Notes: generated from the letters alone by a model not told the origin. Positions 40-29,686 are shown, numbered from the stretch's first letter. The stretch: 64,000 nt of DNA from Pseudomonadota bacterium (GCA_029779845.1 JAKOZT010000064.1:334-64333); one strand, 5' to 3'. Program-made: numbers and translations.

Positions 40-1122
40 TCAGGCGCGCTTCTTCACGCCCACGCTGTAGCTGCCGGTGGCGGCGGCGGTCTTGTGCTTC
101 ACCGTCAGCCAGTACTCGCCCGGCTGCAGCTTGCGCACGATGCGCGCGTTCCTGCCCTGGCCGCGGTCGTCGTCCCAGGTGAGCACGGCGCCGCGGTCGC
201 CCGGGCCGTGCAGCGTCAGCACGGTGTCGGTCGGGCCTTCGGTGGTCATGATGTAGGTGGCGGCGGTGGCGACCGTGAAGTGGAACTCGTCGACTTCGCC
301 GGCCGTGGCCAGCTCGGCGCTGATGCGCTTGCCCATCGCCAGCTCGGTCATCGCCGGCGCGGCCTTCGGGTACTGGCGGCGCATGAACTCGATGTCCATC
401 GCCGAGAACTCGGTGTTCCAGCCGATCGCGTAGGAGCCGATCGTCAGCGAGTCGGGGATCGCGTACTCCATGATCGAGGTCGGGTCGAAGCTGGTGTGGT
501 TGGTGCTGTCCTCCGAATAGACCTGGAAGATGTTGAAGTCGACGTCGCCCTTGTCCCAGCCCTGCTGCGCGTAGTAGGCGTAGACCTTGGGCTTGTCCCA
601 CGGGATCTGCCCCTGCGCGGCCGGGTTCTGGTGCTCGTGGATCATGCCCAGCGCATGGCCGAACTCGTGGCGCACCACGCGCTGGTACTCGCGCAGCTCG
701 GTCGTGGGTTCGAGCCAGCCGTAGTTCATCGTCGCCTTGTCGGCGGCCACGGTGAGCGCGTCGGTGCCCACCGTCGACCACGAGAAGCCCTTCTCGGCGA
801 AGCTGATGCGGATCTGCGCCGTGCCGCTGCTCACGAACTCCAGCTTCAGGTTGGCGATGGCCTCCCACTCCTTCGCGATCGCCTGCACCTTGGCCTGCAC
901 CGCGGCGTTGCCGTCGAGGAACTTCACCTTCAGCGTGCGGCCGTTCTCCCACAGCTTGAGCTTCTCCACCGCGGCACGCGCCCGGCCCGCGCCGCCGCGC
1001 AGCGGCGTGATGCGCGTGTTGCCCACGCGCTCGCGCGCGGCGGCCTCGTCGCTGGACAGGCGCCCAGCCTCGCCGGTGAGGCCGGGCACGAAGGGCGAGC
1101 AGATCTTGCAGGTGTGGGTCAT
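40..1122 (-). CDS. astacin-like zinc metalloprotease (metzincin) with C-terminal PPC pre-peptidase domain, 360 aa, no signal peptide
   Basis: Last 360 codons of track ORF 40..5055. ATG at 1122-1120 (MTHTCKICSPF) with GAGGAAG 5 nt upstream. HEFGHALGMIHEH matches the HExxHxxGxxHE astacin-type zinc site, with a Met-turn-like SIMEY. The tail (GEVDEFHFTV..TLHGPGD..WDDDRGQGRNARI..GEYWLTV..GSYSVGV) fits the PPC domain pattern. The rest of the track ORF upstream is Arg/Ala/Pro-rich read-through. Confidence 0.85.
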   Translation of the reverse strand: MTHTCKICSPFVPGLTGEAGRLSSDEAAARERVGNTRITPLRGGAGRARAAVEKLKLWENGRTLKVKFLDGNAAVQAKVQAIAKEWEAIANLKLEFVSSGTAQIRISFAEKGFSWSTVGTDALTVAADKATMNYGWLEPTTELREYQRVVRHEFGHALGMIHEHQNPAAQGQIPWDKPKVYAYYAQQGWDKGDVDFNIFQVYSEDSTNHTSFDPTSIMEYAIPDSLTIGSYAIGWNTEFSAMDIEFMRRQYPKAAPAMTELAMGKRISAELATAGEVDEFHFTVATAATYIMTTEGPTDTVLTLHGPGDRGAVLTWDDDRGQGRNARIVRKLQPGEYWLTVKHKTAAATGSYSVGVKKRA

Positions 1123-1142: not shown

Positions 1143-4100
1143 TCAGGGCCAGGTGCGCACGACTTCGTCGATGACGCGGGCGATCGGCTGGAAGGGCAGC
1201 TCGAGGTGCGCGTTCTGCCACACGACGACGAACTCCGCCGCGTCGCTCCTGCGGCGCAGCCAGGCGCCCTCGGAGAACACCGTGCCGACGAAGGCCGAGC
1301 CGCTGGAGGCCTCGCCGATCTTGCATCCGGTGACCTCGAACGACGAGCCGGCGGTGGCGGTGTGGTCCTTCAGCCAGGTCCAGGGCGCGCCGGCCTCGAA
1401 GATCGTGCGCATGCGCTGGCTGGCGGCGGCGTCGACCAGCGTGCCGCGGTGCAGGTGGGCGAGCAGGCTGGCCATCGCCAGCGCCGTCATCGCGGCCGAC
1501 GACGTGCCGTTGCGCGGGGTCTTGCCGCCGCTGCGCGTGGCCACCGGCACGTGGAAGTCGGGCCAGTTGCCGTAGTCGGCGGTGGTCCAGACGCCGCTCG
1601 CGCTCGCTGCATCGAAGAAGCCGCCTGCTTCCAGCGCGCGGTTGACGTAGCTGTAGCCGAGGCGGTGCATGGTGTCGCGCGGCGTGATGTTCTGGTCCTG
1701 CTCGGAAAAGATCTTCTCGACGCCGTCCGCATGCGTGGCGTGCATCTCGACGCGGAAGCGGTTCGGCCCGTCGGGCAGCGCGCGCAGCGCCTTGTCGAAC
1801 TTCGTCGCGCGCCACTCGCCGGCGCGGTTGATGCGCGCCACCGAGCGCTCGATGGCCGGGCCGAACTCGCGGCGCACGCGGTCGAGGAACTTCGCCGCGG
1901 TGGGCGCCGTCAGCGCCGGCGCCAGTTCGTTGACCTGCTTCACCAGCTCGAAGCTGGCGTACAGCATCGCCACCTTCAGCAGGCTGGCGGAGAAGTACAT
2001 CTCGGTCTCGTGCACGCCGGCGTATTCCATCGTGCCGGTGGGCGTGAGCTTCGCGACCAGCAGCGCGAGCGCGTCGAGCCGGGCCGGGTTGGCGCCGCTC
2101 AGCGTGGCGCGCTGCGTCGCCAGCGCCGCGGCGAGGCGCGCGTTGTGCGCCGCCCCCGGCGTGAGCTGCAGTGCGTAGGGCACGGTCGGGAAGGGGTTGC
2201 GCACCGCGCTGTCGGCCACCGTGCTGCCGGCGATGCGCAGCGAACGCGCCGCGATGTTGGGGTGGTTCACGACCAGGCTGTCGACCGGCGCGGGCGCGAG
2301 CGCCACGTCGGCGCCGCCGCTGCGGATCACCGCCACCAGCAGCACGACGCGCCCCAGCGCCTCGCCGGTCAGGTCGAGGTCGAAGCTGGCGATGCCCGGG
2401 CGCACCGCATCCAGCGTCTGGCCGGTGAGCGTCTGCCGGCTGCCGACCAGGCTCCAGCCGGCGCCGAAGGGCAGCGAGGTCGTGCCCGGCGTCGAGTTCA
2501 GCACGTGGTTGGCCGCGCCGGTCCAGGGGGCGTCGCCCGTGGGCAGGGCGGTGCCCGACCACTTCAGCAGCGCCACGCGAACCTCGCCGCCGTCCAGCGG
2601 CGCGAGGCCGCGGTACTGCACCAGCACCTCCACCTTGCTCGGCCCCGGCGGCAGTTCGCCGGCCATGTCGCTGCCGGTGGGTTCGCGCAGCGTGGGGCCG
2701 AGCTCGATCAGGTCGGCGCTGCCCGGCCGCGCCGGGCCCCAGGGCTCGGCGTTCGCCCAGGGCAGCTGCATGCTCTGCTCCCAGTACGCCTTGCCGATGC
2801 GCACCGTGCCGAGCACGCTGGGTGCGCCGAGCGTGGCGAGCACCTCGTTGAACTGGTTGTCCCACTTGCCGGTGGCGCGCACGCGCGCGTCGCCGGTGCG
2901 CGCGCGCAGCGCGCTCTGGAAGCGCCGCAGCGGCTCGGCTTCGATCAGCGGCGAGCCCATCGTCCACGGCAGCGTGGCCGGCGTGGTCGCGGGGATGGGG
3001 GCGCGGCGTGGCCGCAGGTCGGGGCTGGCGTGCCAGGGGCGGGTCGTCACGCCGTCGCGCCCGGTCAGCGAGGCGGCGGCGCGGTAGCGCAGGTCGTCGG
3101 CGTGGGCGCGCAGGTAGGCGAGGTCCGCCACGTCGTCGGCATCGAGGCGCAGCTCCCACACGCCGCGCGCGGCCAGCCCGGCGCGCAGCAGGCGCAGGCC
3201 GTCGCGGCTGTAGAGCGCGAGATCCTGCACGACAGCTTCGGGCAGGCCGTTGAGAAGCGCGCTCCAGGTCCAGGCCGGCTTGCCCGGGTCGGCGAGGTTG
3301 CGCACGCCCTTCCACACGCCGATGGTCGTGCCGACGTACACCTCGTTCGGAAACGCCGGGTCGCAGGCGATCGCGGTCACCGGGGTGGGAACGGCGGCAC
3401 GAAGCTTGGTGGCGAACCAATGCTCGCCGCCGTCGAACCACCACAGCGTGTCCACATCCTCGGCGGCCGGCTTGCCGACGGTGCCGAGATACACCGCCCC
3501 GCGCGTGCCGCGCGCCACTGGCTCGCCGCCCGGTGCGGCCGGCGGCTCGAGGTTGACGGCGATGTCGGTCCAGGTCGCGGCGTCGCGGATCGGGCCATTG
3601 GCCTTGGTCTCGTCCTTCTTCTGCTTGACGCCGCGCTCGATGATGGTCTGCGCCGTCCACGCGCCCGGGCCGGCCGCCGCATCGCTGCCGGCCGTGCGCG
3701 CATAGCGCCGCAGCCGGCCTTCGCCCAGCACCCAGGCGACTTCGCTGCCCTGCCAGCGGCACACCGTGATGCGCCGGCCGAAGTCGTCGTGCGCGAGGTT
3801 GCCGGCCGGCGGCGCGGCGGCGCCGGGCAGCGTCACCCAGCTGGCGCCGAAGTCTTCCGAGTACCACAGGCGCGAGGTGCCGACGATCGTCTGCGTCACC
3901 GTCTGCTGCCCGGCCGGCGCGCCGGGGCGCTGCTTGGCCGTCATCGCCGGCTGCGAGAGTTCGGCGCTGCGCCCGGCGCGGTTCTCGCCCAGCGCGAGCG
4001 GCAGCGTGATCGCGCCTTGCGACGAGGCCCACTCGCCGTGGTGCAGCTGGTAGACATGCCGCGACGGTTGGTTCGGGTCGAAGGCGATGCCGCCGCCTTG

Positions 4101-6344
4101 CGCGAAGGTGCTGCTCTCGCGCCGCCACGCCGCGCCGCCGAGCCGGCGCGCCACGCCGTGGCGGTGCACGCCGGCCAGCACCATGCCTTCGCACACCGGG
4201 TGGTTGGCGACGTAGTTGATCTCCGCCACCGCGAGCCCGTCGTTCATCGCGACGAAGCCCGAGGGCACGCCGATGCGGTCGCTGCGGTACACGCCGCCAT
4301 CGCTCGCCGCCCACAGGCGCTGGCCGGCGTTGCTGAAGACGACGTGGTGCACGTAGGCATGCACGCCGCCGCCCAGCAGCGCGGCGCGGCCGAAGGCGAG
4401 CGTGCCGCCGAGGCCGGCGGCCACGGGCGCGAGCGTCAGTGCGGCGTCGTCGTCCGCGCCGGCGCGGCGGCCGCCGGCGATCACGACGTGGTCGGGCCGG
4501 GAAGGGTCGACCGCGAGTGCGATCGCATAGCTGCCCGAGTCGCCCAGCACGTCGGGCACGCCGGTCACCGACACGGCGATCGGCTCGGCGGCGGGGTCGG
4601 CCGGAGCGTCGATGCGGAACAGCAGCGGGCGCATCAGCTCGGGGTAGATCGCATTGATCGCCGCCACGTCGCCGGCCGACAGCCCGACGCGCTGGCCGAT
4701 CGCCTGCCCGCCGATCGGCACGATGGTGTCCAGCCGGGTGGCGTCCTTGCTGAAGGCGCGGCGGCCGTAATGCATGATCGAGCCGAAGTCGTAGGCGCCG
4801 ATGTCGTCGCCGTCGCTGATCTGCTGCTGGAAGTTGTGCTCCTCGCCGCTCTTGATGTTCTCGGTGAGCACGCGCACGAAGCTGTTGCGGTCCTCGCGGC
4901 TCTGCTCGTGCCACAGCCCGAGCGAATGGCCGATCTCGTGCACCGCCGCGCCGAAGCCGCAGCCGGTGCCCAGCGAGATCACCTGCTTGCCGCCCTGCAT
5001 GCCCACCGGCGAGAAGCAGCCGTCGAGCGCCTCGAACGAGATCCAGTTCGGGCACACCGCCGCGTTGGCCGGCGTGCGCTCGACGAAGCGGATGCGCGTG
5101 CGCGCCTGCCAGTGCGCGATCGCCGATTCGACCAGCGGGCGCAGCGCGGCGATGGTCTCCCAGGGCACCACGCCGCCCGGCCAGCGGTAGCGCTCGCCGG
5201 TGATCGCGACGCCGAAGGGCACGCCGCCGGGCCGCGCGGCCGCCTTGCGCATGCGCTCCATCTCGGTGGCGGGGCCGAGGTCGATGTCGCCTTCGAAGAT
5301 CGTGCGGCCGCCGATCTCATTGCAGTCCACCGCCTTCACTTCGCCGCTGTCGATCAGGCGCACGAAGCCCTGCTGCTTGCGCGGCGAGGAGCGGAACCAG
5401 CAGCCGCAGTCGTCCGGCGGCAGCGCGGCCGCCGCCGGCACCTCGGGCCGGGCGCTGTGCGGCAGCGGCGCGCCGCCGGGGGCGCCGGCCACGCTGGTGG
5501 CCGCGCCGGGCTGGTCGCAGAACAGCCAGATCTGCTGCGGGTTCACCGCCGCCAGCACCGCGCGGCGCGCGACCGCGCCGGGCGCCTGGATGCGCCGCCA
5601 GTCGGCGCCGGCGGCGTTGGCGGCGCGCATCCACAGCCCGGCGTTCGCGCCGCTCTCGACCCACACCCACCAGCGTGTCGGCAGCGTGCCGGCGGCGGGT
5701 GTCCACAGCACGTCGGTGCAGATCGCGTCCAGCGTCTCGAACGGCGCGCCGGCCACGCGCTGCCACGCGGCGGCGGCATTGGTGGCGGGACGTTCGTACA
5801 AGCCGCTGCTGGTGGCCGCGACGATGCGCGTGCCCGCGCCCGGCTCGATCGCGATGCGGTAGACGCTGGCGCCGAGCAGGTCGGCCGCTTCGTGCGCCCA
5901 GGCGACGTTGCCGCTGGCCAGCGTGTGCGTGCCGACGAAGATGCTCACCCCGCCGAGCGGCTGCCCCGGCGCCGCGCCGATGTGCTGCGCGCGCGGCGCG
6001 GCCGGGTCGTGCCAGGGCTCGCCGGTGCCGAGCACCACGGTGTCGCTGGCGGTGCCGAAATTGACCGCGAGCGCGCCGCAGGCGAAGCGGCTCGCGGCGC
6101 GGTCTATCGTCTGCGGCGAAGGCGTGGGCTCGAAGCCGTCGAGCGAGCGCCATGACGCACCGCCGTCGCCCGAGTACCAGAGCCCGCCGTTGGCCGTCGC
6201 CGCGTAGACGCGCTCGCCGTCCGGATGCACCGCCAGCGCGTTGACCGCGCCGCTGATGCGCCCCGCGCCCTGCACCTCGCCGTTGAGCAGCGTGTGCGGC
6301 CCGAGCGGCTGCCACAGATGCGTTCGCGAGGTGGGTGCACTCAT
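1143..6344 (-). CDS. 1733-aa multidomain protein: BNR/Asp-box beta-propeller-like regions, embedded astacin (M12A-like) protease domain, C-terminal beta-lactamase/transpeptidase-like serine hydrolase domain
   Basis: Distal part of track ORF 1143..9611. ATG at 6344-6342 (MSAPTSRTHLWQP) overlaps the upstream stop as ATGA. Asp-box-like motifs are present (SGDGGASWRSL, SEDFGASWVTL, ASDGGVYRS). Astacin signature RWPGGVVPW ... HEIGHSLGLWHEQSREDR (nt 4905-4940) ... SIMHYG; domain at about nt 4641-5216. The last ~300 aa (about nt 1146-2040) carry FSASLLK (S-x-x-K, nt ~1975-1995), YSYVN (Y-x-N) and CKIG (K-x-G). No N-terminal signal peptide. Confidence 0.85.
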   Translation of the reverse strand: MSAPTSRTHLWQPLGPHTLLNGEVQGAGRISGAVNALAVHPDGERVYAATANGGLWYSGDGGASWRSLDGFEPTPSPQTIDRAASRFACGALAVNFGTASDTVVLGTGEPWHDPAAPRAQHIGAAPGQPLGGVSIFVGTHTLASGNVAWAHEAADLLGASVYRIAIEPGAGTRIVAATSSGLYERPATNAAAAWQRVAGAPFETLDAICTDVLWTPAAGTLPTRWWVWVESGANAGLWMRAANAAGADWRRIQAPGAVARRAVLAAVNPQQIWLFCDQPGAATSVAGAPGGAPLPHSARPEVPAAAALPPDDCGCWFRSSPRKQQGFVRLIDSGEVKAVDCNEIGGRTIFEGDIDLGPATEMERMRKAAARPGGVPFGVAITGERYRWPGGVVPWETIAALRPLVESAIAHWQARTRIRFVERTPANAAVCPNWISFEALDGCFSPVGMQGGKQVISLGTGCGFGAAVHEIGHSLGLWHEQSREDRNSFVRVLTENIKSGEEHNFQQQISDGDDIGAYDFGSIMHYGRRAFSKDATRLDTIVPIGGQAIGQRVGLSAGDVAAINAIYPELMRPLLFRIDAPADPAAEPIAVSVTGVPDVLGDSGSYAIALAVDPSRPDHVVIAGGRRAGADDDAALTLAPVAAGLGGTLAFGRAALLGGGVHAYVHHVVFSNAGQRLWAASDGGVYRSDRIGVPSGFVAMNDGLAVAEINYVANHPVCEGMVLAGVHRHGVARRLGGAAWRRESSTFAQGGGIAFDPNQPSRHVYQLHHGEWASSQGAITLPLALGENRAGRSAELSQPAMTAKQRPGAPAGQQTVTQTIVGTSRLWYSEDFGASWVTLPGAAAPPAGNLAHDDFGRRITVCRWQGSEVAWVLGEGRLRRYARTAGSDAAAGPGAWTAQTIIERGVKQKKDETKANGPIRDAATWTDIAVNLEPPAAPGGEPVARGTRGAVYLGTVGKPAAEDVDTLWWFDGGEHWFATKLRAAVPTPVTAIACDPAFPNEVYVGTTIGVWKGVRNLADPGKPAWTWSALLNGLPEAVVQDLALYSRDGLRLLRAGLAARGVWELRLDADDVADLAYLRAHADDLRYRAAASLTGRDGVTTRPWHASPDLRPRRAPIPATTPATLPWTMGSPLIEAEPLRRFQSALRARTGDARVRATGKWDNQFNEVLATLGAPSVLGTVRIGKAYWEQSMQLPWANAEPWGPARPGSADLIELGPTLREPTGSDMAGELPPGPSKVEVLVQYRGLAPLDGGEVRVALLKWSGTALPTGDAPWTGAANHVLNSTPGTTSLPFGAGWSLVGSRQTLTGQTLDAVRPGIASFDLDLTGEALGRVVLLVAVIRSGGADVALAPAPVDSLVVNHPNIAARSLRIAGSTVADSAVRNPFPTVPYALQLTPGAAHNARLAAALATQRATLSGANPARLDALALLVAKLTPTGTMEYAGVHETEMYFSASLLKVAMLYASFELVKQVNELAPALTAPTAAKFLDRVRREFGPAIERSVARINRAGEWRATKFDKALRALPDGPNRFRVEMHATHADGVEKIFSEQDQNITPRDTMHRLGYSYVNRALEAGGFFDAASASGVWTTADYGNWPDFHVPVATRSGGKTPRNGTSSAAMTALAMASLLAHLHRGTLVDAAASQRMRTIFEAGAPWTWLKDHTATAGSSFEVTGCKIGEASSGSAFVGTVFSEGAWLRRRSDAAEFVVVWQNAHLELPFQPIARVIDEVVRTWP

Positions 6345-9300
6345 GATGAGCTTCCCTCCGGCTTGGCCGGCGCCACGCGGATCCAGCCTTCGCGGAACTC
6401 CGCCGGCGTGTCGGGCAGCAGCGCGGTCTGCGTGGCGGCGAGGATGGCGTCGCTGCGCCAGCTCGCCGGCGTGTCGCGCCAGAGGAAGTTCTGGTCCTTG
6501 CCGAACACCGACACCTTGGGCAGGCGCACCTGGCCTTCCTTCGCGAGATCGGTCTCCACCAGCACCGGCCCGGTGCGCAGCGAGGGCGCGATCGCCTGCA
6601 GGCCGGGGCCGACCCAGTCGCGCGCCAGCGCCAGCGCCTTGCGCGGCAGCAGGCCCGAGCTGAGCGTGGCCTTGCCGGCCGGGTGCATGAAGATCGTCAG
6701 CGTCACCGTCTGGCCGAGGTGCAGCAGCAGCGTGTCGGCGTCGTCGCTGCCGGCGATGTACGGGTGCACGATGGCACTGGCCGCCGGCAGCCCGGCCGAC
6801 CGCGCGAACACGCCGAGCTGGCCGCGGCTGCGCCCGGCCTCGGGTGCGATGCCGGCGATCGCCTTGTCGACGAGGCGGAAGCGCGAATAGTCGTCGTCGA
6901 CGAAGAAGCCGAGCACGCCGTCGTCGCTGCGCGTCAACTCGCCGATGCGCACCGGGAAGGCGTGGCGCGCCGCCTCCTGCTCGGCCTGTGCCCACTCGGC
7001 GGCGCGCTGCGGGTCGCTCAGGTCGATGTCCTCGGGCGGGCGCAGTTCGAGGCGCAACTGCGCGCGCACCACCGCGATCGGCCGGCCCACCAGCCCGGCG
7101 ACGTGCTCGCTGCCCAGCGAGGCGAAGCTGTCCACCGTCCACAGCGTGGTGTCGATGGCGCGCAGCAATGCCGACAGCGCGCTCTCGGCGGCCGTGTCCT
7201 CGCCCACCGGCGTGCCGCCGCGCGCGGCCGCGTCCGCCGCCACCAGCGCGGCGGCGAAGTCGGCCAGCGGCTTCTGCGCCGGCGCGAGGCCATGGTGCGG
7301 GCCGGCATCGGCCGGGCCTTCGCGGCCGGCGGCGATCTCCCACATCACGCCGCCGCTGACCGGCTCGTGCAGCAGCTCGCCGATAGCCGCGCCGTCGGCG
7401 CCGAACACTTCCAGGCTCTCGTCGAGGTGGTCGGGCATCACGAAGCCGGCCACCGGATTGACCTGCAAGGCCGCTTCGATCTGGTCGACGCGCGCTTCCG
7501 TTCCTTCGGCGCCCGGCGGCGTCGCCGCATCGACGAGGCGGAACAGCCAGCGCGCCGGGCGCAGCAGGCGCGGGCGCAGCAGCAGCGCGCCGGCGCGGTC
7601 GGGCAGCGTCTCGCGCGTAGTCGTGATGACGCCCTGCACCGGCAGCTCCAGCGTGCGGCCGAAGGCGTCGAGCACACGTGCGCGCGTCAGCGTCGCGCAG
7701 CCGGCCAGCAGCAGGTGTGGCGGCGCGGTTGGCGCGGGGTTGCTCACGCCGCTGGCGGCGCTGGGCCGGTGCAGGCCGTCGCGCGCCGGCAGGCCGAGCA
7801 GCTGCGTGCGCAGGCCGTCGCAGGTGGCGGTCATCACGTCGAGGTGCTGCACCGCGCTGTCGAGCACGCGGTAGGCGTCTTCCAGCGCTTCGTCGACCTG
7901 GCCGGCGCCGTCGTCGTCGAGCGCGTCTTCGGCCTTCAGCCAGTCGCTGATCGCGTCGTGCAGGGTCTTCGCGGCGCCGCTGGTCAGCGGCGCGCGGCCG
8001 CGCAGCGTGGCGGTGTCGCCCTCGAACGTCGTCGTGCTGCCTTCGAGATCCACCGCGCCGAGCTGCCAGGCCTGCAGCGTCGGCGGGTCCAGCCCCTCGA
8101 CCTTCAGCTCCCATTCCAGCCACAGCGGCACCCAGGGCTGCGCCCAGGTGCTGACGCCGACGAGATCCGGGTCGGCGCCCTTGTAGAGCGAGAACTTGCG
8201 CAGCTCGTCGGACACCAGCGATTGCTGCTCGCGCAGGCCGGGGCGAACGCCTTGCGCCGGTGCGCGCGCGCTGCGCGACGGCGAGCGGGCGAGCGTCGCG
8301 GCCAGCACCGCGGTGCCGCCGTCGTAGGCGCCGTCGCGCCCGAAGCGCAGCACCGATTCGGCCTTCAGCCGCGTCAGCAGCGCGTTGCGGCCGGTGCCGG
8401 GCGGTGCCAGCGCGGCGGCGATCCATTCGTCGTGATACGGGTCGTGCAGCAGCGCTTCGCGCGACAGCGTCAGCACTTCCGGCGGCAGCGAGCCGTTGCC
8501 CAGCGAGCGGATGAAGCGGTCCTTCGCGATCACGCCGTCGATCTCGGCGATCACGTGCGTGGGCCAGCGGCAGCTCAGCTTGCCGTCGGCCGAGCCGCGC
8601 CCGTCGTTGCCGTGGCGCAGGCTGCGGCCGGCGCCGCGCAGCGCGAGCATCGGTTCGGTGGGGAAGGCGAAGCGCGGCGCGGGGTGGTCGACCACGCGCG
8701 CTTCGGTGGGCGAGAGCACGTCGCCGACGCGCGAGCGGGCGAGGTCGTTGATCAAAGCCTCGGTGGCCTTGATCAGGTTCGGCTTGCCCTGGGTCGCGAA
8801 GTGCGTCTCGGCCTGCAGCTTCGGGCCTTGCGCGCCGAGCACGTTTTTCGTAGCCTTGGTCTGCGCCGTGAGGCCGACACGCTCGCCGCGCTTGCGCCCG
8901 AGACCCAAGCCGCCCGCGCCGCCGGTCTGCACGCGCTGCAGAAAGCGGTCCGTGCCGGCCGAGCCGGCCGGCAGCGACGCGAAGGCGATCGTGTGTTCGT
9001 GCTCTTCCAGCGCCACCGCGCCATCGGGCGAACCCAGCTGGTTGACTTTCTGCGCGGTGAAGGCGGTCAGCAGCCGCTCGGTGGCGCGGCGCTGCTCGGG
9101 CGTGGCCTGCGCGGCGGCGAAGGCGGCGATCAGGTCGTCGTCGTGCAGGCCGAAGGCGATGCTCACCGCTTCGGCGGCGGGGCGCCGGTCGATGCCCGCC
9201 GCGCCCGTCACCGGCACGCCGTGGATCGCGCCGTGCAGCAGCGAGGAACGCAGCTGCCAGGCCGGCGCGGTGTAGCGCTGCGCCGCGTCGGCGGCGAAAA

Positions 9301-10345
9301 CCGAGGCGGCGACCAGATGCTCCTGCCTGGCGACCACGGTCTTGTCGATCGGCACGAACACCGAAGCGCCAGCGGCGGCCGCGCGCGCGGCGCGCGCCGT
9401 CTTCGCCTTCACGGGGCGCGGCGTCGCGCCGCGCTCGCCTTCGGTCAGGCCGAGCGCACGGCGCAAGTCGGTCTGCGCCTTCTCCTGCGCGCGCGCCCAG
9501 GATTCGTCGCCCCATTCGTAGAGCAGCCGCCAGCGCAGCCTCTCCAGCATCTCGTGCAGGCTGCCGTTGTCGCGCGCCTTGTCGAGCGGGTCGAGCGCGG
9601 GGTCGCTCCACCAGCCGGCGATCAGGTAGCTGGCGCAGTCTTCGTCCACGCCGCGCGGCGCGATCGTCGCGAGGTCGGCCAGCGGGTCGTGGAAGGCGAA
9701 GCGGTTCAGCACCGCGTCGTACACGCCCGACCAGACCAGCGCGCCGCCCACCGTGCCGGTGAGCTGCTCGCGTGTCAGCGCTTCTCCGGCATTAGGCGCG
9801 GCGGTGGAAGCGGCACCACCTTCGCTCCATTGCGCCAGCGGCACGGCCGCGGCGCGGTCGGCTTCGAGCACCCAGCCGGTCAGCACCGGCTCGCTCGCGC
9901 CGCGCGGCAGCACGATGCGCAGCACCACCCAGCGATCCGGCAGCGGCGGCAGCGCGAGGCGGTTGGCGCTGCCGTCGGCGGCCGATGCGAAGCGTCCGCG
10001 CAGCAGCGCATCCGGCATCGCCCAGTGCAGGTGCACGCCCGCCGGGCGCGGCGTGCCCTCGGTGAAGGGGTCGGGCAGGCCGTCTTCGATGTCGGCGATC
10101 GGCTTGCCGTCGACGTGAGCCACCAGCATCGGCAGCCGCACCATCTTCTCCTGGCTGCCCGGCGCGACGTAGAGCGCCTGCACGTCGACGGGCACCAGCA
10201 GGCGGTGCTCGCGCAGCAGGTACCTGTCCCAGGTGGCGATCTCCGCGACGTCGAGCGCGGCGCGGTCGGCGGCCAGGAAGCGCTTGCTGCGCAGCAGTTG
10301 CTGCACCTGCGCGGCATCCATCGCGGCGGTGGGCTTGGTGCTCAT
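6341..10345 (-). CDS. hypothetical protein, 1334 aa (operon member, no recognisable domain)
   Basis: Complete track ORF with normal amino-acid composition (MSTKPTAAMDAAQVQQLLRSKRFLAADR..). The ATG at 10345 lies 1 nt after the upstream gene stop (TGAcATG). Its stop overlaps the next gene start (ATGA at 6341-6344). I see no Walker A, signal peptide or catalytic motif. Confidence 0.8.
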   Translation of the reverse strand: MSTKPTAAMDAAQVQQLLRSKRFLAADRAALDVAEIATWDRYLLREHRLLVPVDVQALYVAPGSQEKMVRLPMLVAHVDGKPIADIEDGLPDPFTEGTPRPAGVHLHWAMPDALLRGRFASAADGSANRLALPPLPDRWVVLRIVLPRGASEPVLTGWVLEADRAAAVPLAQWSEGGAASTAAPNAGEALTREQLTGTVGGALVWSGVYDAVLNRFAFHDPLADLATIAPRGVDEDCASYLIAGWWSDPALDPLDKARDNGSLHEMLERLRWRLLYEWGDESWARAQEKAQTDLRRALGLTEGERGATPRPVKAKTARAARAAAAGASVFVPIDKTVVARQEHLVAASVFAADAAQRYTAPAWQLRSSLLHGAIHGVPVTGAAGIDRRPAAEAVSIAFGLHDDDLIAAFAAAQATPEQRRATERLLTAFTAQKVNQLGSPDGAVALEEHEHTIAFASLPAGSAGTDRFLQRVQTGGAGGLGLGRKRGERVGLTAQTKATKNVLGAQGPKLQAETHFATQGKPNLIKATEALINDLARSRVGDVLSPTEARVVDHPAPRFAFPTEPMLALRGAGRSLRHGNDGRGSADGKLSCRWPTHVIAEIDGVIAKDRFIRSLGNGSLPPEVLTLSREALLHDPYHDEWIAAALAPPGTGRNALLTRLKAESVLRFGRDGAYDGGTAVLAATLARSPSRSARAPAQGVRPGLREQQSLVSDELRKFSLYKGADPDLVGVSTWAQPWVPLWLEWELKVEGLDPPTLQAWQLGAVDLEGSTTTFEGDTATLRGRAPLTSGAAKTLHDAISDWLKAEDALDDDGAGQVDEALEDAYRVLDSAVQHLDVMTATCDGLRTQLLGLPARDGLHRPSAASGVSNPAPTAPPHLLLAGCATLTRARVLDAFGRTLELPVQGVITTTRETLPDRAGALLLRPRLLRPARWLFRLVDAATPPGAEGTEARVDQIEAALQVNPVAGFVMPDHLDESLEVFGADGAAIGELLHEPVSGGVMWEIAAGREGPADAGPHHGLAPAQKPLADFAAALVAADAAARGGTPVGEDTAAESALSALLRAIDTTLWTVDSFASLGSEHVAGLVGRPIAVVRAQLRLELRPPEDIDLSDPQRAAEWAQAEQEAARHAFPVRIGELTRSDDGVLGFFVDDDYSRFRLVDKAIAGIAPEAGRSRGQLGVFARSAGLPAASAIVHPYIAGSDDADTLLLHLGQTVTLTIFMHPAGKATLSSGLLPRKALALARDWVGPGLQAIAPSLRTGPVLVETDLAKEGQVRLPKVSVFGKDQNFLWRDTPASWRSDAILAATQTALLPDTPAEFREGWIRVAPAKPEGSSS

Positions 10346-10346
10346 G

Positions 10347-11369
10347 TCATGCCTTCCCGAGTTGGGTGGCGAGCGTGCTCTTCCACACGTCCAGCTTCAC
10401 CGTCGCCTTGAAGCGATCCAGCGCGTAGAACTTCTGCCCCTCGTCGTCCTTCGGGTCGCCGAACACCTGGCGGTAGGGGAAGCGCAGCATCTGCAAGGCG
10501 TACTCGTTCGACTCCAGCGTGCCGCCGCTGTGGGGCGCCTTGGCGGCGAGGCGCTGGCGCAGCGTGTGGATGTCGATGACGCCCGGCGCGCCGGCGCGGA
10601 ACGGCACCTCGACCGAGTTCGCGTTGGTGAAGTCGTCCAGCGGCGGCACGCTGTCGCCCGTGTTGCAGTCGCGCACCTTGACCTTGGCGCGGCGTGCGTT
10701 GGGCGGGTCCTCCGGATCGAGGCGCGCGCCGAACTGGATGCCCTGGCGCGGCTCCTCGATGTGCACCACTGCCGGCACGCCGTCGAACAGCACCAGCAGC
10801 ACCGCCGGCGCGAGGCGCTCCATGCGCAGCACCTTCATGCGCGCCGGGTGCGACTCGGCCACGTCGCTCAGCTCGGCGTCGGGCAGCGAATCGGTGGAAT
10901 AGGCGCGCACGTGCAGGTTGGGCCAGCCCGACACCGCGCGCGAGCGCATCAGAAAGCCGGTGATCGTGCCGCTGCCGGCCTTCAGCAAGGCCTCGCCGCG
11001 CGGCTTGCGGATCGTGCGCTCGGCCTCGTCGACCTCGGCGCGGATGTGCGGGTACACCGCTTCGAGCTGCGTGCGGTCGGCGCTGCTGATGGTGCCGACG
11101 CTGAGCGCGCCTTGCACCAGCGCATCGGTCCAGGCGCGGTCGAGGTAGAAGAAGCGGATGGATTCGACCGGCAGCAGCGCGGCATCCGGCACGAGGTAGC
11201 TGAAAGGCACGCCGTGCAGCAGGCGCAGCCGCGCGAGGAAGCGGCGCAGCTCGCCGGGCACGACGTGCGCGCCGTCGTCGGGGTCGTTGTCGGTGGCGAT
11301 CTCGGCGTAGTGCGTCGCGGCCTTCACGGCCGCCCGCAGAGCGACTTCGGCGCTGATGGTGGACTTCAT
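10347..11369 (-). CDS. hypothetical protein, 340 aa (operon member)
   Basis: Distal part of track ORF 10347..13016. ATG at 11369-11367 (MKSTISAEVALRAAVKAATHYAEI) overlaps the upstream stop as ATGA. Composition is normal after this Met and Arg/Gly-rich junk before it. Notable motif: LLHGVPFSYLVPDAALLPVESIRFFYLDRAWTDALVQGALSVG. Confidence 0.8.
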   Translation of the reverse strand: MKSTISAEVALRAAVKAATHYAEIATDNDPDDGAHVVPGELRRFLARLRLLHGVPFSYLVPDAALLPVESIRFFYLDRAWTDALVQGALSVGTISSADRTQLEAVYPHIRAEVDEAERTIRKPRGEALLKAGSGTITGFLMRSRAVSGWPNLHVRAYSTDSLPDAELSDVAESHPARMKVLRMERLAPAVLLVLFDGVPAVVHIEEPRQGIQFGARLDPEDPPNARRAKVKVRDCNTGDSVPPLDDFTNANSVEVPFRAGAPGVIDIHTLRQRLAAKAPHSGGTLESNEYALQMLRFPYRQVFGDPKDDEGQKFYALDRFKATVKLDVWKSTLATQLGKA

Positions 11370-13378
11370 GGCTGGGCCTCCTCGTCGTCCTCGTCGGCGG
11401 GCGCATTGGCGATCAGATCGTCGAGTGCATCCGGCATGCGCGCCGCCTGCGCGCGCCGCACGCCGCCGATCACCCCCTTGGTGGGCGGCGCCGCCACCGC
11501 CAGCGTGCGCTGCAGCTCGCCTTGCAGCGCGGCGCGCAGCGCGGGGATCACCAGCTTTTCGCTCGGCGCCTGGCCGGGCTGCACCGCCAGCGGCACGCCG
11601 GTGGTCTGCAAGGCGCTGAGCAGGCCGACCGCGTCGGCGCGTTTCTTCAGCGCGGCGAGGTCGAAGCCGAGTCCGGCGGCGACCAGCTTGTCGAGGTCGC
11701 CATCGACGCGCAGCGGCCGCCCCGGATCGGCCACCGGGCGCTGCGGGCCGATCATGCGATCGGTGTTCTTCGCCAGCACCGGCAGCACCTGCATCGCGAC
11801 GAAGCGGCCGAGATCGACGCGCTCGTCGCGCAGGTCGGGCAGCGCGAAGGGCATCAGCTCGGCGAGGATCTCGCGCACGCGCCCGGCGCCGAACTGCTCG
11901 GCGCGGAAGCGCAGCAGCGCCGACACCACCGACAGCTGCGACAGCGCCAGCAGCCGGCCGATCTCGAAGGCGGCGGCCAGCGCCAGGTCTTCGCGGCCGT
12001 CGGGGATCACGCGGCGCAGCTGGTCGGCCGAATGCGCCAGCGCGAGCGGCTCGTCCTTCGCGTTCGAATCGCGCGGCGTCGGGAAGGGCACGCAGGGGCC
12101 GCGGTACCAGGCGCGCAGCGGGTCGCCGCGGCGCGTGCGGTGCGCCAGGCCGATGTGGCCGGTCTGCACCACCTCGGGCTGGGCCTGGGAAGCGGGGGAA
12201 TTCGGCGCGACTTCGGGCACGCTGCCGAGCAGGCCGACGTCGAGATCCTGCATCAAGGTCTCGAAGGTCGCGCCCTCGTTGGTGGTGAACGACCAGTGCG
12301 CCAGCAGCGGGAAGCGCAGCACCTTCTCCTGCGCGTACAGCTCGATCGGCAGGCGAAAGCCCAGCGCCATCGTGTCGCGCACCATGCGCTTGGCATCGGG
12401 GTCGAGCGCGGCGGCGGCCACCTTCTGCGTGGCGCTCGCGCTCCACTGCTTGCTCACCGTGGGCTGCTGCATCGTCGTGCCGCCGTCGAGCGCCGCGCCG
12501 AGCCTGGCGCCCTTGGCGTTGGCGTTGGCGGCCGCCAACGCCGCCTGCGCGCGCGGCGCGCCCGGGCCCAGCGCGGGCGAGGGCAGCACGACGTTGCCGA
12601 TGGCGACGTTGCCCATCACCTGCGCGTCGGCCGAGCCGAGCGCGTTGACCGTCGCGAGCACGGACCAGTCCTGCGCCAGCGCGAACTCGAAACTCGCCTT
12701 CGGCGGCTGCGGCTTGGGCAGCGCCTCGAGCTGGCCTTCGAGGTTGACCAGGCAGGCCATGTAGCGCACCGGCTTGCCTGCTGCCTTGTCGAACACCGGC
12801 AGGCGGTTGGCCAGCACCACCGCGAGCCAGCCGTCGTCGTCGCCGTTGGCGAGTTCGGTGTCGTTGACGTCGACCTCGCGCACGTGCGCGAGCAGCTCGA
12901 GATCTTCCTTGCAGGGGAAGACCTTCTTCACCACCGTCTCGGTGACGCCGAGGTACAGGCCCTGCTCGACGTCCTTGTCGCCGGGGTCGAGCAGCGCGGT
13001 GCCGGGCGTCACGCACTCGCGCACCGGCGTCGCGGTAGACAGCGTCGCCTCGCCTTCGGCCACCACCACCAGCGCGAGCCAGGGCGTGGGCGAAGGCGCG
13101 ATCGCGCCGGCCGGGTTGCGCTCCCAGGGCAGGGTGCGGCGCTTGAGCACGATCTGCGGCAACCGGTCGCCGAAGGCGCCTTCGGCGTTGGCGGGCGGGA
13201 AGCTGGACAGGATCTGGTCGACCGGCATCGTGTAGCGCGGCGCCGCCACCTGGATGTGCGTGCTCTCGGGCTCCACCTCGAAGGGCAGGCCGGTCTGCTC
13301 GGTGCGCAGCTCGTAGCGCCCCGCCGTGATCTTGGGCATCACGTTGGAGTGCAGGATGAAGTGGCCGGTGCGGGGCAT
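11366..13378 (-). CDS. hypothetical protein, 670 aa (operon member)
   Basis: Complete track ORF (MPRTGHFILHSNVMPKITAGRYELRTEQ..) with normal composition and an acidic C-terminus (ADEDDEEAQP). ATG at 13378, with an alternative ATG 13 codons downstream. No clear SD for either start. No recognisable domain. Confidence 0.75.
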   Translation of the reverse strand: MPRTGHFILHSNVMPKITAGRYELRTEQTGLPFEVEPESTHIQVAAPRYTMPVDQILSSFPPANAEGAFGDRLPQIVLKRRTLPWERNPAGAIAPSPTPWLALVVVAEGEATLSTATPVRECVTPGTALLDPGDKDVEQGLYLGVTETVVKKVFPCKEDLELLAHVREVDVNDTELANGDDDGWLAVVLANRLPVFDKAAGKPVRYMACLVNLEGQLEALPKPQPPKASFEFALAQDWSVLATVNALGSADAQVMGNVAIGNVVLPSPALGPGAPRAQAALAAANANAKGARLGAALDGGTTMQQPTVSKQWSASATQKVAAAALDPDAKRMVRDTMALGFRLPIELYAQEKVLRFPLLAHWSFTTNEGATFETLMQDLDVGLLGSVPEVAPNSPASQAQPEVVQTGHIGLAHRTRRGDPLRAWYRGPCVPFPTPRDSNAKDEPLALAHSADQLRRVIPDGREDLALAAAFEIGRLLALSQLSVVSALLRFRAEQFGAGRVREILAELMPFALPDLRDERVDLGRFVAMQVLPVLAKNTDRMIGPQRPVADPGRPLRVDGDLDKLVAAGLGFDLAALKKRADAVGLLSALQTTGVPLAVQPGQAPSEKLVIPALRAALQGELQRTLAVAAPPTKGVIGGVRRAQAARMPDALDDLIANAPADEDDEEAQP

Positions 13379-13400
13379 GTCAGTGGTCCGCGTGAAACAA

Positions 13401-13571
13401 CCGTTCGCCCTGAGCGGGGGACTGAGCTTGTCGAAGTCCCCGTGTCGAAGGGGCGGCGATGGCGGGGCGCCTCGAGGGCTTCGACAAAGCCTGTCCTGAG
13501 CTTGTCGAAGGGCTCAGCCCCTTCGGCAAGCTCAGGACCCGCGGGGGCTTCGACAAGCTCAGCCCGAACGG
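13401..13571. repeat. cluster of REP-like palindromic units (CTGAGCTTGTCGAAG / CTTCGACAAGCTCAG) in the intercistronic gap
   Basis: CTGAGCTTGTCGAAG occurs at 13422-13436 and 13496-13510. Its reverse complement CTTCGACAAGCTCAG is at 13548-13562, with a degenerate copy CTTCGACAAAGCCTG at 13479-13493. Outer arms are CCGTTCG (13401-13407) and CGAACGG (13565-13571). A related copy lies at 55381-55453. Confidence 0.8.
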
Positions 13572-13602
13572 AGCAGGGGGGCAGCAGATACCGGTTTTCA
13601 TT

Positions 13603-23463: not shown

Positions 23464-23473
23464 GGCGGCCGCC

Positions 23474-24097
23474 TCACTTCGGCGCCTTCAGCGTCGACGA
23501 ACCCGAGAAGCGGTGCCGCGCCATCGGCAGGATCTGGATGCCGCGCGCGCTGACCGCCAGCTCCACCGGCACCAGCAGGTTGCCGCGCGCGTCCTTGCCG
23601 GTGGCCGCGGCGATGCCGGTGACCAGGCCCAGCACGCATTGCCACGCAAAGGCCACCAGCGCATCGCCCCAGGCCGCGACCACCACTTCCGACCCGTTCG
23701 GGCGGCGCGCGGTGGCGGCGTACAGGCCGGCCGGCTCGCTGGGCGAGCCGGTGGCGAACAGCACCTCGACGCTCGCCGCGCCGCTCTGGTCGCAGCGCAC
23801 CGGGATGCGCACGCGGATCAGCCCGTCGGCGAGCTTGACGTCGACGCCCGCGATGCCCACCGCCAGCTCGTTCTCGCCCTCGACCCACACCACTTCGCTG
23901 CGCTGGGTGGGGCGGAAGAAGCCGGCGGCGCGGCGCGAGGCCACGCGCAGCAGCTCGACGCTGCGGCCCGCGGCGATGAACACCGGCTCGAAGACATCGC
24001 CCTCGGCCATCTTGCGCGCGGCCAGCGCCGGCAGGCGCTTGGCGCGGCGCTCGGCCTCGACGAATCGCGCGAACTCCGGGGCGACGGTCTCGGTCAA
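23474..24097 (-). CDS. hypothetical protein, 207 aa (first gene of operon)
   Basis: Complete track ORF (MTETVAPEFARFVEAERRAKRL..). The start codon is TTG (plus strand caa at 24095-24097) with AGGAGGG 4 nt upstream. The stop lies 10 nt before the giant gene start. No recognisable domain. Confidence 0.65.
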   Translation of the reverse strand: MTETVAPEFARFVEAERRAKRLPALAARKMAEGDVFEPVFIAAGRSVELLRVASRRAAGFFRPTQRSEVVWVEGENELAVGIAGVDVKLADGLIRVRIPVRCDQSGAASVEVLFATGSPSEPAGLYAATARRPNGSEVVVAAWGDALVAFAWQCVLGLVTGIAAATGKDARGNLLVPVELAVSARGIQILPMARHRFSGSSTLKAPK

Positions 24098-24131
24098 GAA
24101 CCCTCCTCGCCCCGACGGGGCGCGGGGGTTC
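24098..24131 (-). promoter_or_regulatory. two-tier hairpin in the 5' leader that includes the Shine-Dalgarno of the first operon gene
   Basis: Minus-strand RNA reads GAACCC-CCG-CGCCCC-GUC-GGGGCG-AGGA-GGGUUC followed directly by the UUG start. The outer 6-bp and inner 6-bp stems are perfect complements. The SD (AGGAGGG) is partly inside the 3' arm. Confidence 0.45.
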
Positions 24132-24244
24132 CCTCAATCTAGTTCGCCGTCACCACGTCGCCATCCCTAGCTTGCCGCGTCGAGCAAGGTGTTGCCATTG
24201 CTTGCAAAGCACGTGTGCGTGACCGTGCTGCTAGGCTGCGCGCC

Positions 24245-27937: not shown

Positions 27938-28411
27938 CTAGCCTGCCGCCAGCCACGCCTTGATCTGCCGCTGCACGGCCGGCTCCGACAGCCCCGTGCG
28001 CGGGTCGCACAGCACCAGCTCGGGCGGGGGCGGGTCGCCGAAGGCGACCGGCGAATCGTCGAGGATGATGTAGCTCGTCACCGTCGGGTGGCGCGCCAGC
28101 CAGGCCTGGATGCAGGCGTAGCGCTCGCCCTTGGGCGTGCAGCCGAGGTAGCGGTTGCCCAGGCTGCCGAGCAGGTCGCCGATCTCCTCGGGCGTGTGGT
28201 TGAAGCGCCAGTTGGAATGCACCACCACGTACACGTCGTCGTGGCCGGCCAGCAGGCCGGGCAGGATGTCGAACCAGCAGAAGGCGTCGAACCGCACGCG
28301 GGCCAGCGCCGAACCGCGGTGCGCGGCGCGCGCTTCGTCGTCGGTGGCGCAGGGGTGCGTGACGCCGCCGAAGTCGAGGAAGATGACGCGCATGTCCTGA
28401 TGATCCGCCAT
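27938..28411 (-). CDS. HAD-like domain protein with degenerate motif I, 157 aa
   Basis: Complete track ORF starting at ATG 28411 (MADHQDMRVIFLDFGGVTHP). LDFGGV sits where HAD motif I DxDG(T/V) is expected. Normal composition. Confidence 0.5.
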   Translation of the reverse strand: MADHQDMRVIFLDFGGVTHPCATDDEARAAHRGSALARVRFDAFCWFDILPGLLAGHDDVYVVVHSNWRFNHTPEEIGDLLGSLGNRYLGCTPKGERYACIQAWLARHPTVTSYIILDDSPVAFGDPPPPELVLCDPRTGLSEPAVQRQIKAWLAAG

Positions 28412-29631: not shown

Positions 29632-29686
29632 CTCAACCCCCCTCGAAGCGCCGCACCGGGAAGGTGCCGTTGCACGCACAATAGAT

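Follow-up and report, generated by a model that had tools for sequence, protein, structure and literature searches.

A bacterial protein predicted to combine a double β-propeller scaffold with an inserted pro-astacin and a C-terminal penicillin-binding-protein-like module

Astacins (MEROPS M12A; crayfish astacin, BMP-1/tolloid and the meprins, with LegP-like proteins among bacteria) are zinc metallopeptidases whose zymogen is an N-terminal module behind a signal peptide. Latency is conferred by an aspartate-switch "PP motif" (F-E-G-D-I) in the pro-peptide, whereas the structurally studied bacterial astacin myroilysin uses a cysteine switch instead (PMC9629494). Class A β-lactamases and class-A-like low-molecular-weight PBPs such as PBP-A share the serine β-lactamase-like fold, with the motifs S-x-x-K, [SY]-x-N and K-[TS]-G and, in the class A enzymes, the general base Glu166 on the omega loop. 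GH74 xyloglucanases, Sortilin/Vps10 and BNR (Asp-box) proteins are built on tandem β-propellers. Carrier proteins with swappable C-terminal effector domains are found among the "evolved" VgrG/PAAR/Rhs proteins of type VI secretion and the polymorphic toxins. The protein described here assembles parts resembling the first three of these in a single chain. We found no paper describing this combination, and public databases hold only automatic names ("M12 family metallopeptidase", "hypothetical protein"). The parts are of known kinds; their architecture and the gene cassette around them are undescribed.

The gene lies in a window of 64,000 nucleotides, the whole stretch of DNA analysed, from a Pseudomonadota bacterium (GCA_029779845.1, JAKOZT010000064.1:334-64333). 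The features, all on the minus strand, are as follows.

1143..6344 (-), complete CDS of the 1733-aa protein (stop codon 1143-1145)
5505..6344 (-), scaffold part 1, residues 1-280: first blades of the predicted N-terminal β-propeller, with the Asp-box SGDGGASW at residue 58
5343..5504 (-), Ala/Pro/Gly-rich flexible linker at the N-side of the insertion, residues 281-334
5211..5342 (-), astacin pro-peptide, residues about 335-378, with the PP motif F350-E-G-D353-I354 (nt 5283-5297) and a predicted maturation site at Gly378|Val379
4629..5210 (-), astacin (M12A) catalytic domain, residues 379-572, with the zinc site H469/E470/H473/H479 and family-specific E480 (nt 4887-4940) and the Met-turn S522-I-M524-H-Y526 (nt 4764-4781)
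3045..4628 (-), scaffold part 2, residues 573 to about 1100: rest of the first and the second predicted propeller, Asp-boxes at 680 and 829, near-invariant H662, H666 and D682-G-G684
2232..3044 (-), scaffold part 3, residues about 1101-1371: conserved C-terminal domain of the core family
1146..2231 (-), C-terminal module of predicted β-lactamase/PBP fold, residues 1372-1733, with S1454-L-L-K1457 (nt 1974-1985), Y1566-V-N1568 (nt 1641-1649), K1675-I-G1677 (nt 1314-1322) and S1691-E1692
6341..10345 (-), upstream cassette gene, 1334 aa, no recognisable domain, its stop overlapping the start codon of the 1733-aa gene (ATGA)
10347..11369 (-), cassette gene, 340 aa, no recognisable domain
11366..13378 (-), cassette gene, 670 aa, no recognisable domain
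13603..23463 (-), cassette gene, giant 3286-aa protein with DUF6603 (residues 2104-2586)
40..1122 (-), downstream gene, 360 aa, a metzincin (HEFGHALGMIHEH, SIMEY)

A sequence-only reading of the window had noticed a chimeric protein in which an astacin lies between propeller-like regions carrying Asp-box motifs, followed by a β-lactamase-fold domain, and this observation is confirmed. All the motifs it listed are present: RWPGGVVPW at residue 387, HEIGHSLGLWHEQSREDR at 469-486 and SIMHYG at 522 for the astacin; SGDGGASW at 58, ASDGGVYRS at 680 and SEDFGASW at 829 for the Asp-boxes; SLLK at 1454, YVN at 1566 and KIG at 1675 for the C-terminal module. Strict Asp-box matches number 3, against 0.14 expected from shuffles (P about 5e-4). 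Some corrections are required. The astacin motifs, placed by that reading at nt ~4641-5216, span nt 4764-5186, while the whole inserted module spans nt 4629-5504; and the Tyr of the proposed Y-x-N motif is not conserved. The absence of an evident signal peptide or TM segment, judged from the N-terminal sequence and the hydropathy maximum only, is consistent with its description of the protein as leaderless. The accompanying interpretation, a joining of three modules of which that reading knew no described example, is supported, each of its elements having held up, although the reading did not see the conserved cassette that gives the protein its context. The outcomes named in advance as refuting it, namely a C-terminal region that fails to model as a β-lactamase/transpeptidase fold or lacks an aligned catalytic Ser/Lys, an unsupported propeller or an already named architecture, were not observed.

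The gene is real and intact. GGAGGG lies just upstream of the ATG at 6344, and ATGA overlaps the stop of the upstream gene. GC3, the G+C content at third codon positions, is 0.96 overall and 0.90-0.99 in every 100-codon block. The window has many long overlapping ORFs in all frames, as is common in high-G+C genomes, and the same frame stays open upstream to position 9611, but the in-frame stretch upstream of 6344 has a GC3 of 0.53 and is not coding in this frame. At least 9 full-length homologues, at 61-92% identity and 100% coverage, come from independent assemblies, and the locus is syntenic in a 3-Mb Piscinibacter contig. The possibility of a mis-assembled or frameshift-merged ORF is thereby refuted. 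A longer N-terminus was also considered and rejected, as the roughly 55-aa extension found in most homologues is truly absent here.

Comparison with about 110 homologues defines the domain boundaries and reveals three layers: an ancestral scaffold (residues 1-280 and 573-1371), a pro-astacin insertion (281-572) and a C-terminal module (1372-1733). About 70 homologues align to residues 1-280 and 573-1371 with only 3-8 residues between the two parts, and the core-only homologues end at query residues 1371-1373. All four combinations of scaffold, astacin and C-terminal module occur in nature.

The astacin is canonical. The Pfam Astacin model scores 150 bits (cut-off 22.5, E=7.9e-44) over residues 402-567, and the best PDB match is Tolloid-like 1 (E=2e-35). 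The extended zinc motif HExxHxxGxxHExxRxDRD, including the family-specific Glu after the third His, corresponds to HEIGHSLGLWHEQSREDR and is kept in all 12 inserted homologues. The SxMHY Met-turn with its zinc-ligand Tyr is also kept in the homologues, and the Cys pair equivalent to astacin C64-C84 is present. NCBIfam LegP (NF045530) scores 238.5 bits over model positions 15-244, below its equivalog cut-off of 300, and the domain is thus LegP-like but not an equivalog. FEGDI is identical to the structurally defined PP motif (PMC9629494) and is kept in 11 of 12 inserted homologues and in the sequences P0100-P0103, while the region around the mature N-terminus aligns to pro-astacin (PDB ID 3lq0), GAAILGDEYLWSGG to GVAITGERYRWPGG. 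The catalytic domain is at least as conserved as the scaffold (72% against 62-70% and 86% against 77-84%). The linker preceding the pro-peptide is absent from core-only homologues and variable in length, with pLDDT below 50 for residues 281-320 and 329-337 and higher for a short strand at 323-329. To note, the AF2 model of residues 1-1130 did not resolve the insert, with pLDDT below 50 over 478-560, and it does not orient the insert on the propeller.

The propeller flanks model as all-beta blades, with pLDDT above 90 (about 90 for scaffold part 1). We count roughly 14 four-stranded blades from the strand list, in keeping with two tandem seven-bladed propellers. The 17 best Foldseek PDB matches are all GH74 two-propeller enzymes (E 5e-15 to 1e-11, target-normalised TM-score about 0.55), and the family profile grades into Vps10/BNR/PSII_BNR proteins. 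This is fold resemblance only: identity to GH74 enzymes is 10-11%, no family model scores above its cut-off, the only related sequence hit is a partial one of 38.7 bits to the glycosylhydrolase family NF045728 (cut-off 175), and without a residue-level structural alignment no catalytic Asp pair was identified in the inter-propeller cleft. We do not file the protein as GH74. The following ~270-aa domain, an extra one as compared to GH74 enzymes, is present in all core-only homologues; it returns no family hit and, from sequence alone, looks helical and then beta-rich.

The C-terminal ~360 residues model confidently as a class A β-lactamase/PBP fold (AF2 pLDDT 87.5, pTM 0.90), although this is a prediction and not an experiment. 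The model gives 723 Foldseek hits at E<=1e-3, led by class A β-lactamases, PBP-A and PBP3 transpeptidase domains, with a probability of 1.0, target-normalised TM-scores of 0.60-0.66 and 10-17% identity. Its topology comprises an N-terminal helix, a strand pair, an all-alpha domain, three further strands and a C-terminal helix; it is about 100 residues longer than the known enzymes, with insertions in the alpha domain. By our reading of the modelled secondary structure, S-x-x-K sits at the start of the first long helix after the strand pair (helix 86-106, module numbering) and K-x-G on the first strand of the C-terminal sheet (strand 298-310), where class A enzymes carry these motifs. The alignment of catalytic residues thus rests on predicted topology and not on a residue-level structural superposition. 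Pfam Beta-lactamase2 (cut-off 22 bits) scores 24.9 bits when the module is scanned alone but 20.5 bits within the full-length protein, and 20 of 22 relatives hit (best E=6e-10). The module forms its own family of about 787 sequence clusters, in which S-x-x-K and K-x-G are the most conserved positions, kept in 125 of 127 representatives, the middle residue of the latter being I, V or L rather than T or S. In motif 2, Asn1568 is kept in 101 of 127, while the first position is Y (72), W (43) or F (4), and Y or F in close homologues; the hydroxyl thus seems not to be required. No Glu166 equivalent could be aligned, but the candidates D1590 and a near-invariant S1691-E1692 pair are conserved, as is a W-x-A-x-D motif. 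Elsewhere the module is fused to PG_binding_1, OmpA, Phage_lysozyme, and proteases of the C70, S8 and trypsin types. Sequence links to solved β-lactamases or PBPs were not obtained: PDB searches with the single sequence, an 18-sequence profile and a 22-sequence profile found nothing significant, and hhalign and a 127-sequence HMM against an unverified TEM-1 sequence aligned only one helix pair (AMASLLAHL... to AMATTLRKL...).

The gene is the fifth of a cassette encoding a DUF6603 giant (Pfam E=2e-113), then 670-, 340- and 1334-aa proteins, then the scaffold, often followed by a metzincin. Among 71 related loci, the 1334-aa gene is syntenic in 69, the 340-aa gene in 62 (at 46-89% identity), the 670-aa gene in 62, the giant in 58, and a metzincin gene follows the scaffold gene in 31. 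The cassette is syntenic across at least five phyla and present in at least 394 species-level genomes, the hosts being soil and freshwater bacteria. Overlapping stop and start codons suggest co-production of the partners. Pfam, NCBIfam, PADLOC and PHROGs scans of the neighbouring proteins found nothing beyond DUF6603 and the metzincin, with no homology to any T6SS, Rhs or contractile-injection component, no recognisable secretion or delivery component and no evident immunity gene; no cassette protein has a signal peptide or a clear TM segment. PDB searches with the 340- and 1334-aa proteins found nothing. The 340-aa protein has no phage homologue, and its plasmid hits are distant homologues next to unannotated genes. 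Literature searches for DUF6603 returned nothing relevant. Add-ons are rare (7 of the best 74 genome loci) and lineage-specific. Among other scaffold relatives, P0106, which sits in the same cassette, carries an Rv2525c-like glycoside-hydrolase-like domain, which we read as lysozyme-like, and P0108 carries PG_binding_1. No separate astacin or PBP-like genes were found near core-only cassettes.

Taken together, we favor, with only slightly better than even confidence, a view in which the protein is the fifth product of a conserved, horizontally spread cassette, the ancestral part being a non-enzymatic-looking carrier to which two hydrolase modules were added in one Burkholderiales lineage. The pro-astacin was inserted into the turn between strands 271-276 and 574-579, is tethered by the flexible linker on its N-side and joined almost directly to the propeller on its C-side, and would be held latent by Asp353 bound to the zinc. 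As in other astacins, activity would need cleavage before the catalytic domain, so that the new N-terminus can bury itself against Glu480; for an internal domain this means that the chain is cut in two, the halves staying together through the shared propeller. The C-terminal module, with Ser1454 as putative nucleophile, Lys1457, Asn1568 and Lys1675-x-Gly1677, would most likely cleave or transfer D-Ala-containing peptide stems of peptidoglycan. Both modules would make an add-on degrading protein and cell wall, positioned or delivered by the multi-protein assembly of the cassette, and the rarity and lineage-specificity of the add-ons are as expected for accessory effector modules. The analysis itself establishes the integrity of the gene, the domain boundaries, the insertion, the predicted folds, the motif conservation, the modularity and the synteny, while proteolytic activity, zinc binding by Asp353, zymogen cleavage and the two-chain state, peptidoglycan as substrate (guilt by association), the effector role and any export route are inferred. 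The resemblance to type VI and polymorphic-toxin carriers, a constant scaffold in a conserved operon with rare, interchangeable, partly wall-degrading add-ons, is a functional analogy only, and one add-on is here an internal insertion.

Other explanations are less likely. The enzymes may act in cis for the cassette, the astacin, like the downstream metzincin, processing cassette proteins such as the giant, and the PBP-like module remodelling the producer's own peptidoglycan so that a very large assembly can be inserted, as dedicated wall hydrolases do for flagella and for type III, IV and VI secretion systems. The recurrence of a metzincin, the tight gene coupling and the PG_binding_1 and lysozyme-like add-ons would fit this possible but rather unlikely reading. 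However, about 67 of the best 74 loci have no wall-active module at all and 40 of 71 have no detectable metzincin, indicating that these activities are dispensable for the core function, and all the proteins are leaderless. A released nutrient-scavenging multi-enzyme, with propellers binding or cleaving a glycan and the two hydrolases digesting proteins and peptides or esters in environmental polymers or dead cells, is unlikely: the GH74 fold matches, the weak glycosylhydrolase hit and the soil and freshwater hosts speak for it, but the low GH74 identity, the strict synteny with four unknown proteins across phyla and the lack of a signal peptide speak against it. It is equally doubtful that the C-terminal module is a genuine β-lactamase or esterase, or a non-catalytic ligand-binding domain. 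The class A Pfam hit, the variable motif-2 hydroxyl and the missing Glu166 equivalent leave room for this, but the near-invariance of S-x-x-K and K-x-G in 127 diverse members argues for catalysis, a leaderless 1733-aa fusion is an implausible resistance enzyme, and the module is repeatedly fused to peptidoglycan-binding and lytic domains.

A more far-reaching and tentative reading, which we consider unlikely on present evidence, is that the protein is the effector-carrying subunit of an undescribed five-gene machine, moving between genomes by horizontal transfer and without recognisable secretion, phage or defence component. It would act on the cell walls of a neighbour or of the producer, with the astacin, PBP-like, lysozyme-like and PG-binding modules as interchangeable working ends and an activation step in which the carrier chain itself is cut. 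A complete zymogen that needs a free N-terminus placed inside a β-propeller would, if it works as in other astacins, be an unusual regulatory design. The C-terminal family could be an unrecognised class of wall peptidases and is relevant to how PBP and β-lactamase folds diversify. The add-ons of this protein and its relatives are the only functional handle on a widespread cassette that includes 3300-aa proteins and has no annotation, solved structure or literature.

The downstream 360-aa metzincin is homologous to S. coelicolor SCO6992/AbsR1 (NCBIfam AbsR1, E=4.5e-37) and matches Pfam Astacin (28 bits) and Peptidase_M10 (27 bits). SCO6992 showed no protease activity in vitro, which is a caution against reading activity from motifs. 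The Pfam and NCBIfam matches leave about the last 110 residues uncovered by a metalloprotease model, and in the Ilumatobacteraceae homologue this C-terminal part gives a faint precomputed PPC hit.

The window has about 74% G+C and long ORFs in every frame. On the minus strand, the frame that ends at 1143 stays open up to 9611, but the G+C content at the third codon position (GC3) is 0.90-0.99 in every 100-codon block only between 1143 and 6344, and drops to 0.53 in frame upstream of 6344. The ATG at 6344 has a GGAGGG just upstream and overlaps (ATGA) the stop of a 1334-aa gene read in another frame. The gene is thus real and intact, and its product is 1733 amino acids long. Nine full-length homologues at 61-92% identity and 100% coverage exist in independent assemblies, one of them a protein of a Piscinibacter sp. 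MAG that NCBI names “M12 family metallopeptidase”. The N-terminal sequence shows no signal peptide, and the hydropathy maximum suggests no TM segment. Most scaffold homologues (for example P0010, P0027, and P0051) begin with a conserved extension of about 55 amino acids (MSRYxWP...DDPxGR...) before the shared LWQPLGP motif; the target and its closest relatives lack it, and no trace of it is encoded upstream in any frame.

BLAST mapping of 113 homologues onto the 1733-residue protein provides a clean picture of its domain boundaries. About 70 “core” proteins of 1140-1280 amino acids align to residues 1-280 and 573-1371, with only 3-8 residues between the two parts. Fifteen proteins of about 1520 amino acids add residues 1372-1733 but lack 281-572, while two Variovorax proteins of about 1450 amino acids possess 281-572 but end at 1371; nine or ten proteins have both additions. 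A local alignment shows the junction precisely: the scaffold strand ...QIWLFCDQPG is followed in core proteins by ...LFRI..., whereas 292 residues are interposed in the target. The astacin is therefore an insertion, and the C-terminal module a separate accretion.

An AlphaFold2 model of residues 1-1130, computed with 84 homologues, exhibits a pLDDT of 79.4 and a pTM of 0.77, most of segments 1-280 and 573-1110 being modelled at pLDDT 85-97. The whole region is predicted to be built of four-stranded β blades, roughly 14 by our count, and the insertion lies between strands 271-276 and 574-579. The 17 best Foldseek matches in the PDB are all GH74 xyloglucanases, which possess two tandem seven-bladed propellers (E-values from 5e-15 to 1e-11, target-normalised TM-score about 0.55, identity 10-11%). 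Asp-box motifs occur at residues 58, 680, and 829, enriched over shuffled sequences, and a profile of the family grades into Sortilin-Vps10/BNR/PSII_BNR proteins. No GH74 family model is matched, and the scaffold is termed GH74/Vps10-like in fold only. Across 84 scaffold homologues, G-T-G-E109 (residues 106-109), H662, H666, D682-G-G684, E708, R825, and D1109 (about nt 3018-6029) are invariant or nearly so, and could form a ligand- or metal-binding or catalytic site in the propellers. Residues about 1101-1371 form a further conserved domain.

The inserted module scores 150 bits against Pfam Astacin, and its best solved relatives are tolloid-like 1 and BMP-1 (E about 1e-35). The catalytic elements are complete: zinc ligands H469, H473, and H479, general base E470, family-specific E480, Met-turn M524, and Tyr526. 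Upstream, a 54-residue Ala/Pro/Gly-rich linker, most of it modelled below pLDDT 50, is followed by a pro-peptide harboring F350-E-G-D-I354. Exactly this F-E-G-D-I “PP motif” has been described (PMC9629494): its Asp blocks the zinc (the aspartate switch), and maturation buries the new N-terminus against the family-specific Glu, whereas the bacterial astacin myroilysin uses a cysteine switch. Pro-astacin (PDB ID 3lq0) aligns ...GAAILGDEYLWSGGVIPY to ...GVAITGERYRWPGGVVPW, which predicts maturation at Gly378|Val379. FEGDI is kept in 11 of 12 scaffold-inserted homologues. It is also kept in unrelated proteins of about 1000 amino acids (P0100, P0101, P0103) combining Trypsin_2, Endonuclease_NS, and a C-terminal pro-astacin that is 48-50% identical to the insert; these are the closest relatives of the inserted module found outside the scaffold family. 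The catalytic domain is at least as conserved as the scaffold in every pairwise comparison, which is taken to mean that it is under purifying selection. Since the module is internal, it is inferred that canonical activation would cut the polypeptide into two pieces, residues 1-378 (part of the first propeller, the linker, and the pro-peptide) and 379-1733 (astacin, the remaining blades, the middle domain, and the PBP-like module), which the shared propeller would hold together.

The C-terminal module was modelled with AlphaFold2 using 18 homologous modules (pLDDT 87.5, pTM 0.90). Foldseek returned 723 PDB hits at E<=1e-3, led by class A β-lactamases (LRA-5, BEL-1, TEM, GES, CTX-M), PBP-A, and PBP3 transpeptidase domains, with a probability of 1.0 and target-normalised TM-scores of 0.60-0.66. 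The order of predicted secondary structures, an N-terminal helix, a strand pair, an all-α domain, three strands, and a C-terminal helix, is read as the class A topology. S1454-x-x-K1457 sits at the start of the first long helix after the strand pair, and K1675-I-G1677 on the first strand of the C-terminal sheet. Scanned alone, the module reaches 24.9 bits on Pfam Beta-lactamase2 (cut-off 22), and 20 of 22 relatives hit this model, with a best E of 6e-10; within the full-length protein, the same hit is 20.5 bits. Sequence searches found no significant match to any solved structure, and only one helix pair aligns to TEM-1.

An exhaustive profile search with this module finds 787 representative clusters, mostly stand-alone proteins of 330-430 amino acids, although some are C-terminal domains of proteins of 580-1915 amino acids. 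In 127 representatives, S and K of motif 1 and K and G of motif 3 are each kept in 125, W1586 in 126, S1691 in 123, E1692 in 120, and N1568 in 101. The first position of motif 2 is Y, W, or F; the Y-x-N motif proposed in the sequence-only reading thus holds only for the Asn. While the usual motif-2 hydroxyl is not conserved, an S-E pair on the second strand of the C-terminal sheet (S1691-E1692, nt 1269-1274) and a W-x-A-x-D motif (W1586-x-A-x-D1590, nt 1575-1589) are as conserved as the classical motifs, and are candidates for an alternative general base. Fusion partners elsewhere are PG_binding_1, OmpA, Phage_lysozyme, Peptidase_C70, subtilase, trypsin, and hemopexin. This pattern points to peptidoglycan as the substrate, and also shows that a protease associated with this module is a recurring combination.

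The gene is the fifth of a minus-strand operon, in the following order:
a possible 219-aa ORF
a 3286-aa DUF6603 protein
a 670-aa protein
a 340-aa protein
a 1334-aa protein
1143-6344, minus strand, the 1733-aa target
40-1122, minus strand, a 360-aa second metzincin (HEFGHALGMIHEH, SIMEY), homologous to S. coelicolor SCO6992/AbsR1 (E=4.5e-37)

For SCO6992, zinc binding, no protease activity, and β-glucuronidase activity have been reported (PMC9705864). The 224-nt spacer between the giant and the 670-aa genes (13379-13602) holds four copies of the palindromic unit CTTCGACAAGCTCAG, in inverted pairs like a REP element. In the Piscinibacter, Rhizobacter, and Ilumatobacteraceae loci these two genes abut or overlap, so the element looks like a local insertion inside the operon. 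The rest of the window encodes ordinary chromosomal functions.

The same gene order occurs in Piscinibacter, in Rhizobacter, where the scaffold has neither add-on, in an Ilumatobacteraceae MAG, and in a locus (L080) whose 2183-aa scaffold, P0106, carries an Rv2525c-like glycoside-hydrolase-like domain. Another cassette scaffold, P0108, carries an internal PG_binding_1 domain. A scan of one genome per species found at least 394 relatives, from Burkholderiales, Actinomycetota, Chloroflexota, Acidobacteriota, and Gemmatimonadota. In the best 71 loci, the giant-670-340-1334-scaffold synteny holds in 58-69, at 40-89% identity and in at least five phyla, and the metzincin follows the scaffold gene in 31. 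Two tandem paralogous scaffold genes occur in a Streptosporangiaceae MAG and in an Acidobacteriota MAG (loci L064 and L073). The cassette (6341-24133, minus strand, in the window; giant of about 3290 amino acids across the loci) is undescribed, with no database match beyond the DUF6603 of the giant and no literature: none of the 670-, 340-, and 1334-aa proteins hits Pfam, NCBIfam, PADLOC, or PHROGs, PDB searches with the 340- and 1334-aa proteins found nothing, and a literature search found no paper mentioning DUF6603.

Only 7 of the 74 best loci carry astacin and/or the C-terminal module, all in Burkholderiales. In a neighbour-joining tree of the scaffold columns, built without bootstrap, the forms with astacin plus C-terminal module are monophyletic and sister to the forms with the C-terminal module only. 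The astacin-only forms, P0025 and P0026, from the loci L006 and L007 of Variovorax robiniae and V. rhizosphaerae, carry the insertion in the same loop but lie far from the Piscinibacter clade, among core-only proteins, which suggests a second acquisition or a recombinational transfer into this loop. P0025 displays YQGCI in place of FEGDI.

The best-supported reading is that of a constant carrier subunit of an uncharacterised multi-protein cassette, which in one lineage acquired two hydrolytic modules: a latent zinc endopeptidase and a PBP-like serine hydrolase, probably directed at peptidoglycan peptides. The boundaries, the insertion, and the synteny are established by sequence comparison; in contrast, the activities of the two modules, including the catalytic competence of the PBP-like module without a motif-2 hydroxyl, the peptidoglycan substrate, and any access of these leaderless proteins to a wall or a target are inferred. 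The rarity of the add-ons, their modularity, and the parallel wall-related add-ons of other scaffolds (PG_binding_1 and the Rv2525c-like domain, taken to be lysozyme-like) resemble effector diversification on structural carriers. The main alternative is that these activities serve the cassette itself, by processing its proteins and remodelling the local wall. The protein is a new architecture built from known families, and the cassette to which it belongs may be the more novel object.

Elsewhere in the window, a small gene (27938-28420, minus strand) harbors a HAD_SAK_2 domain (“Swiss Army Knife” RNA-repair HAD, E=6e-21) and lies close to a Crp-family regulator gene at 28798-29697.
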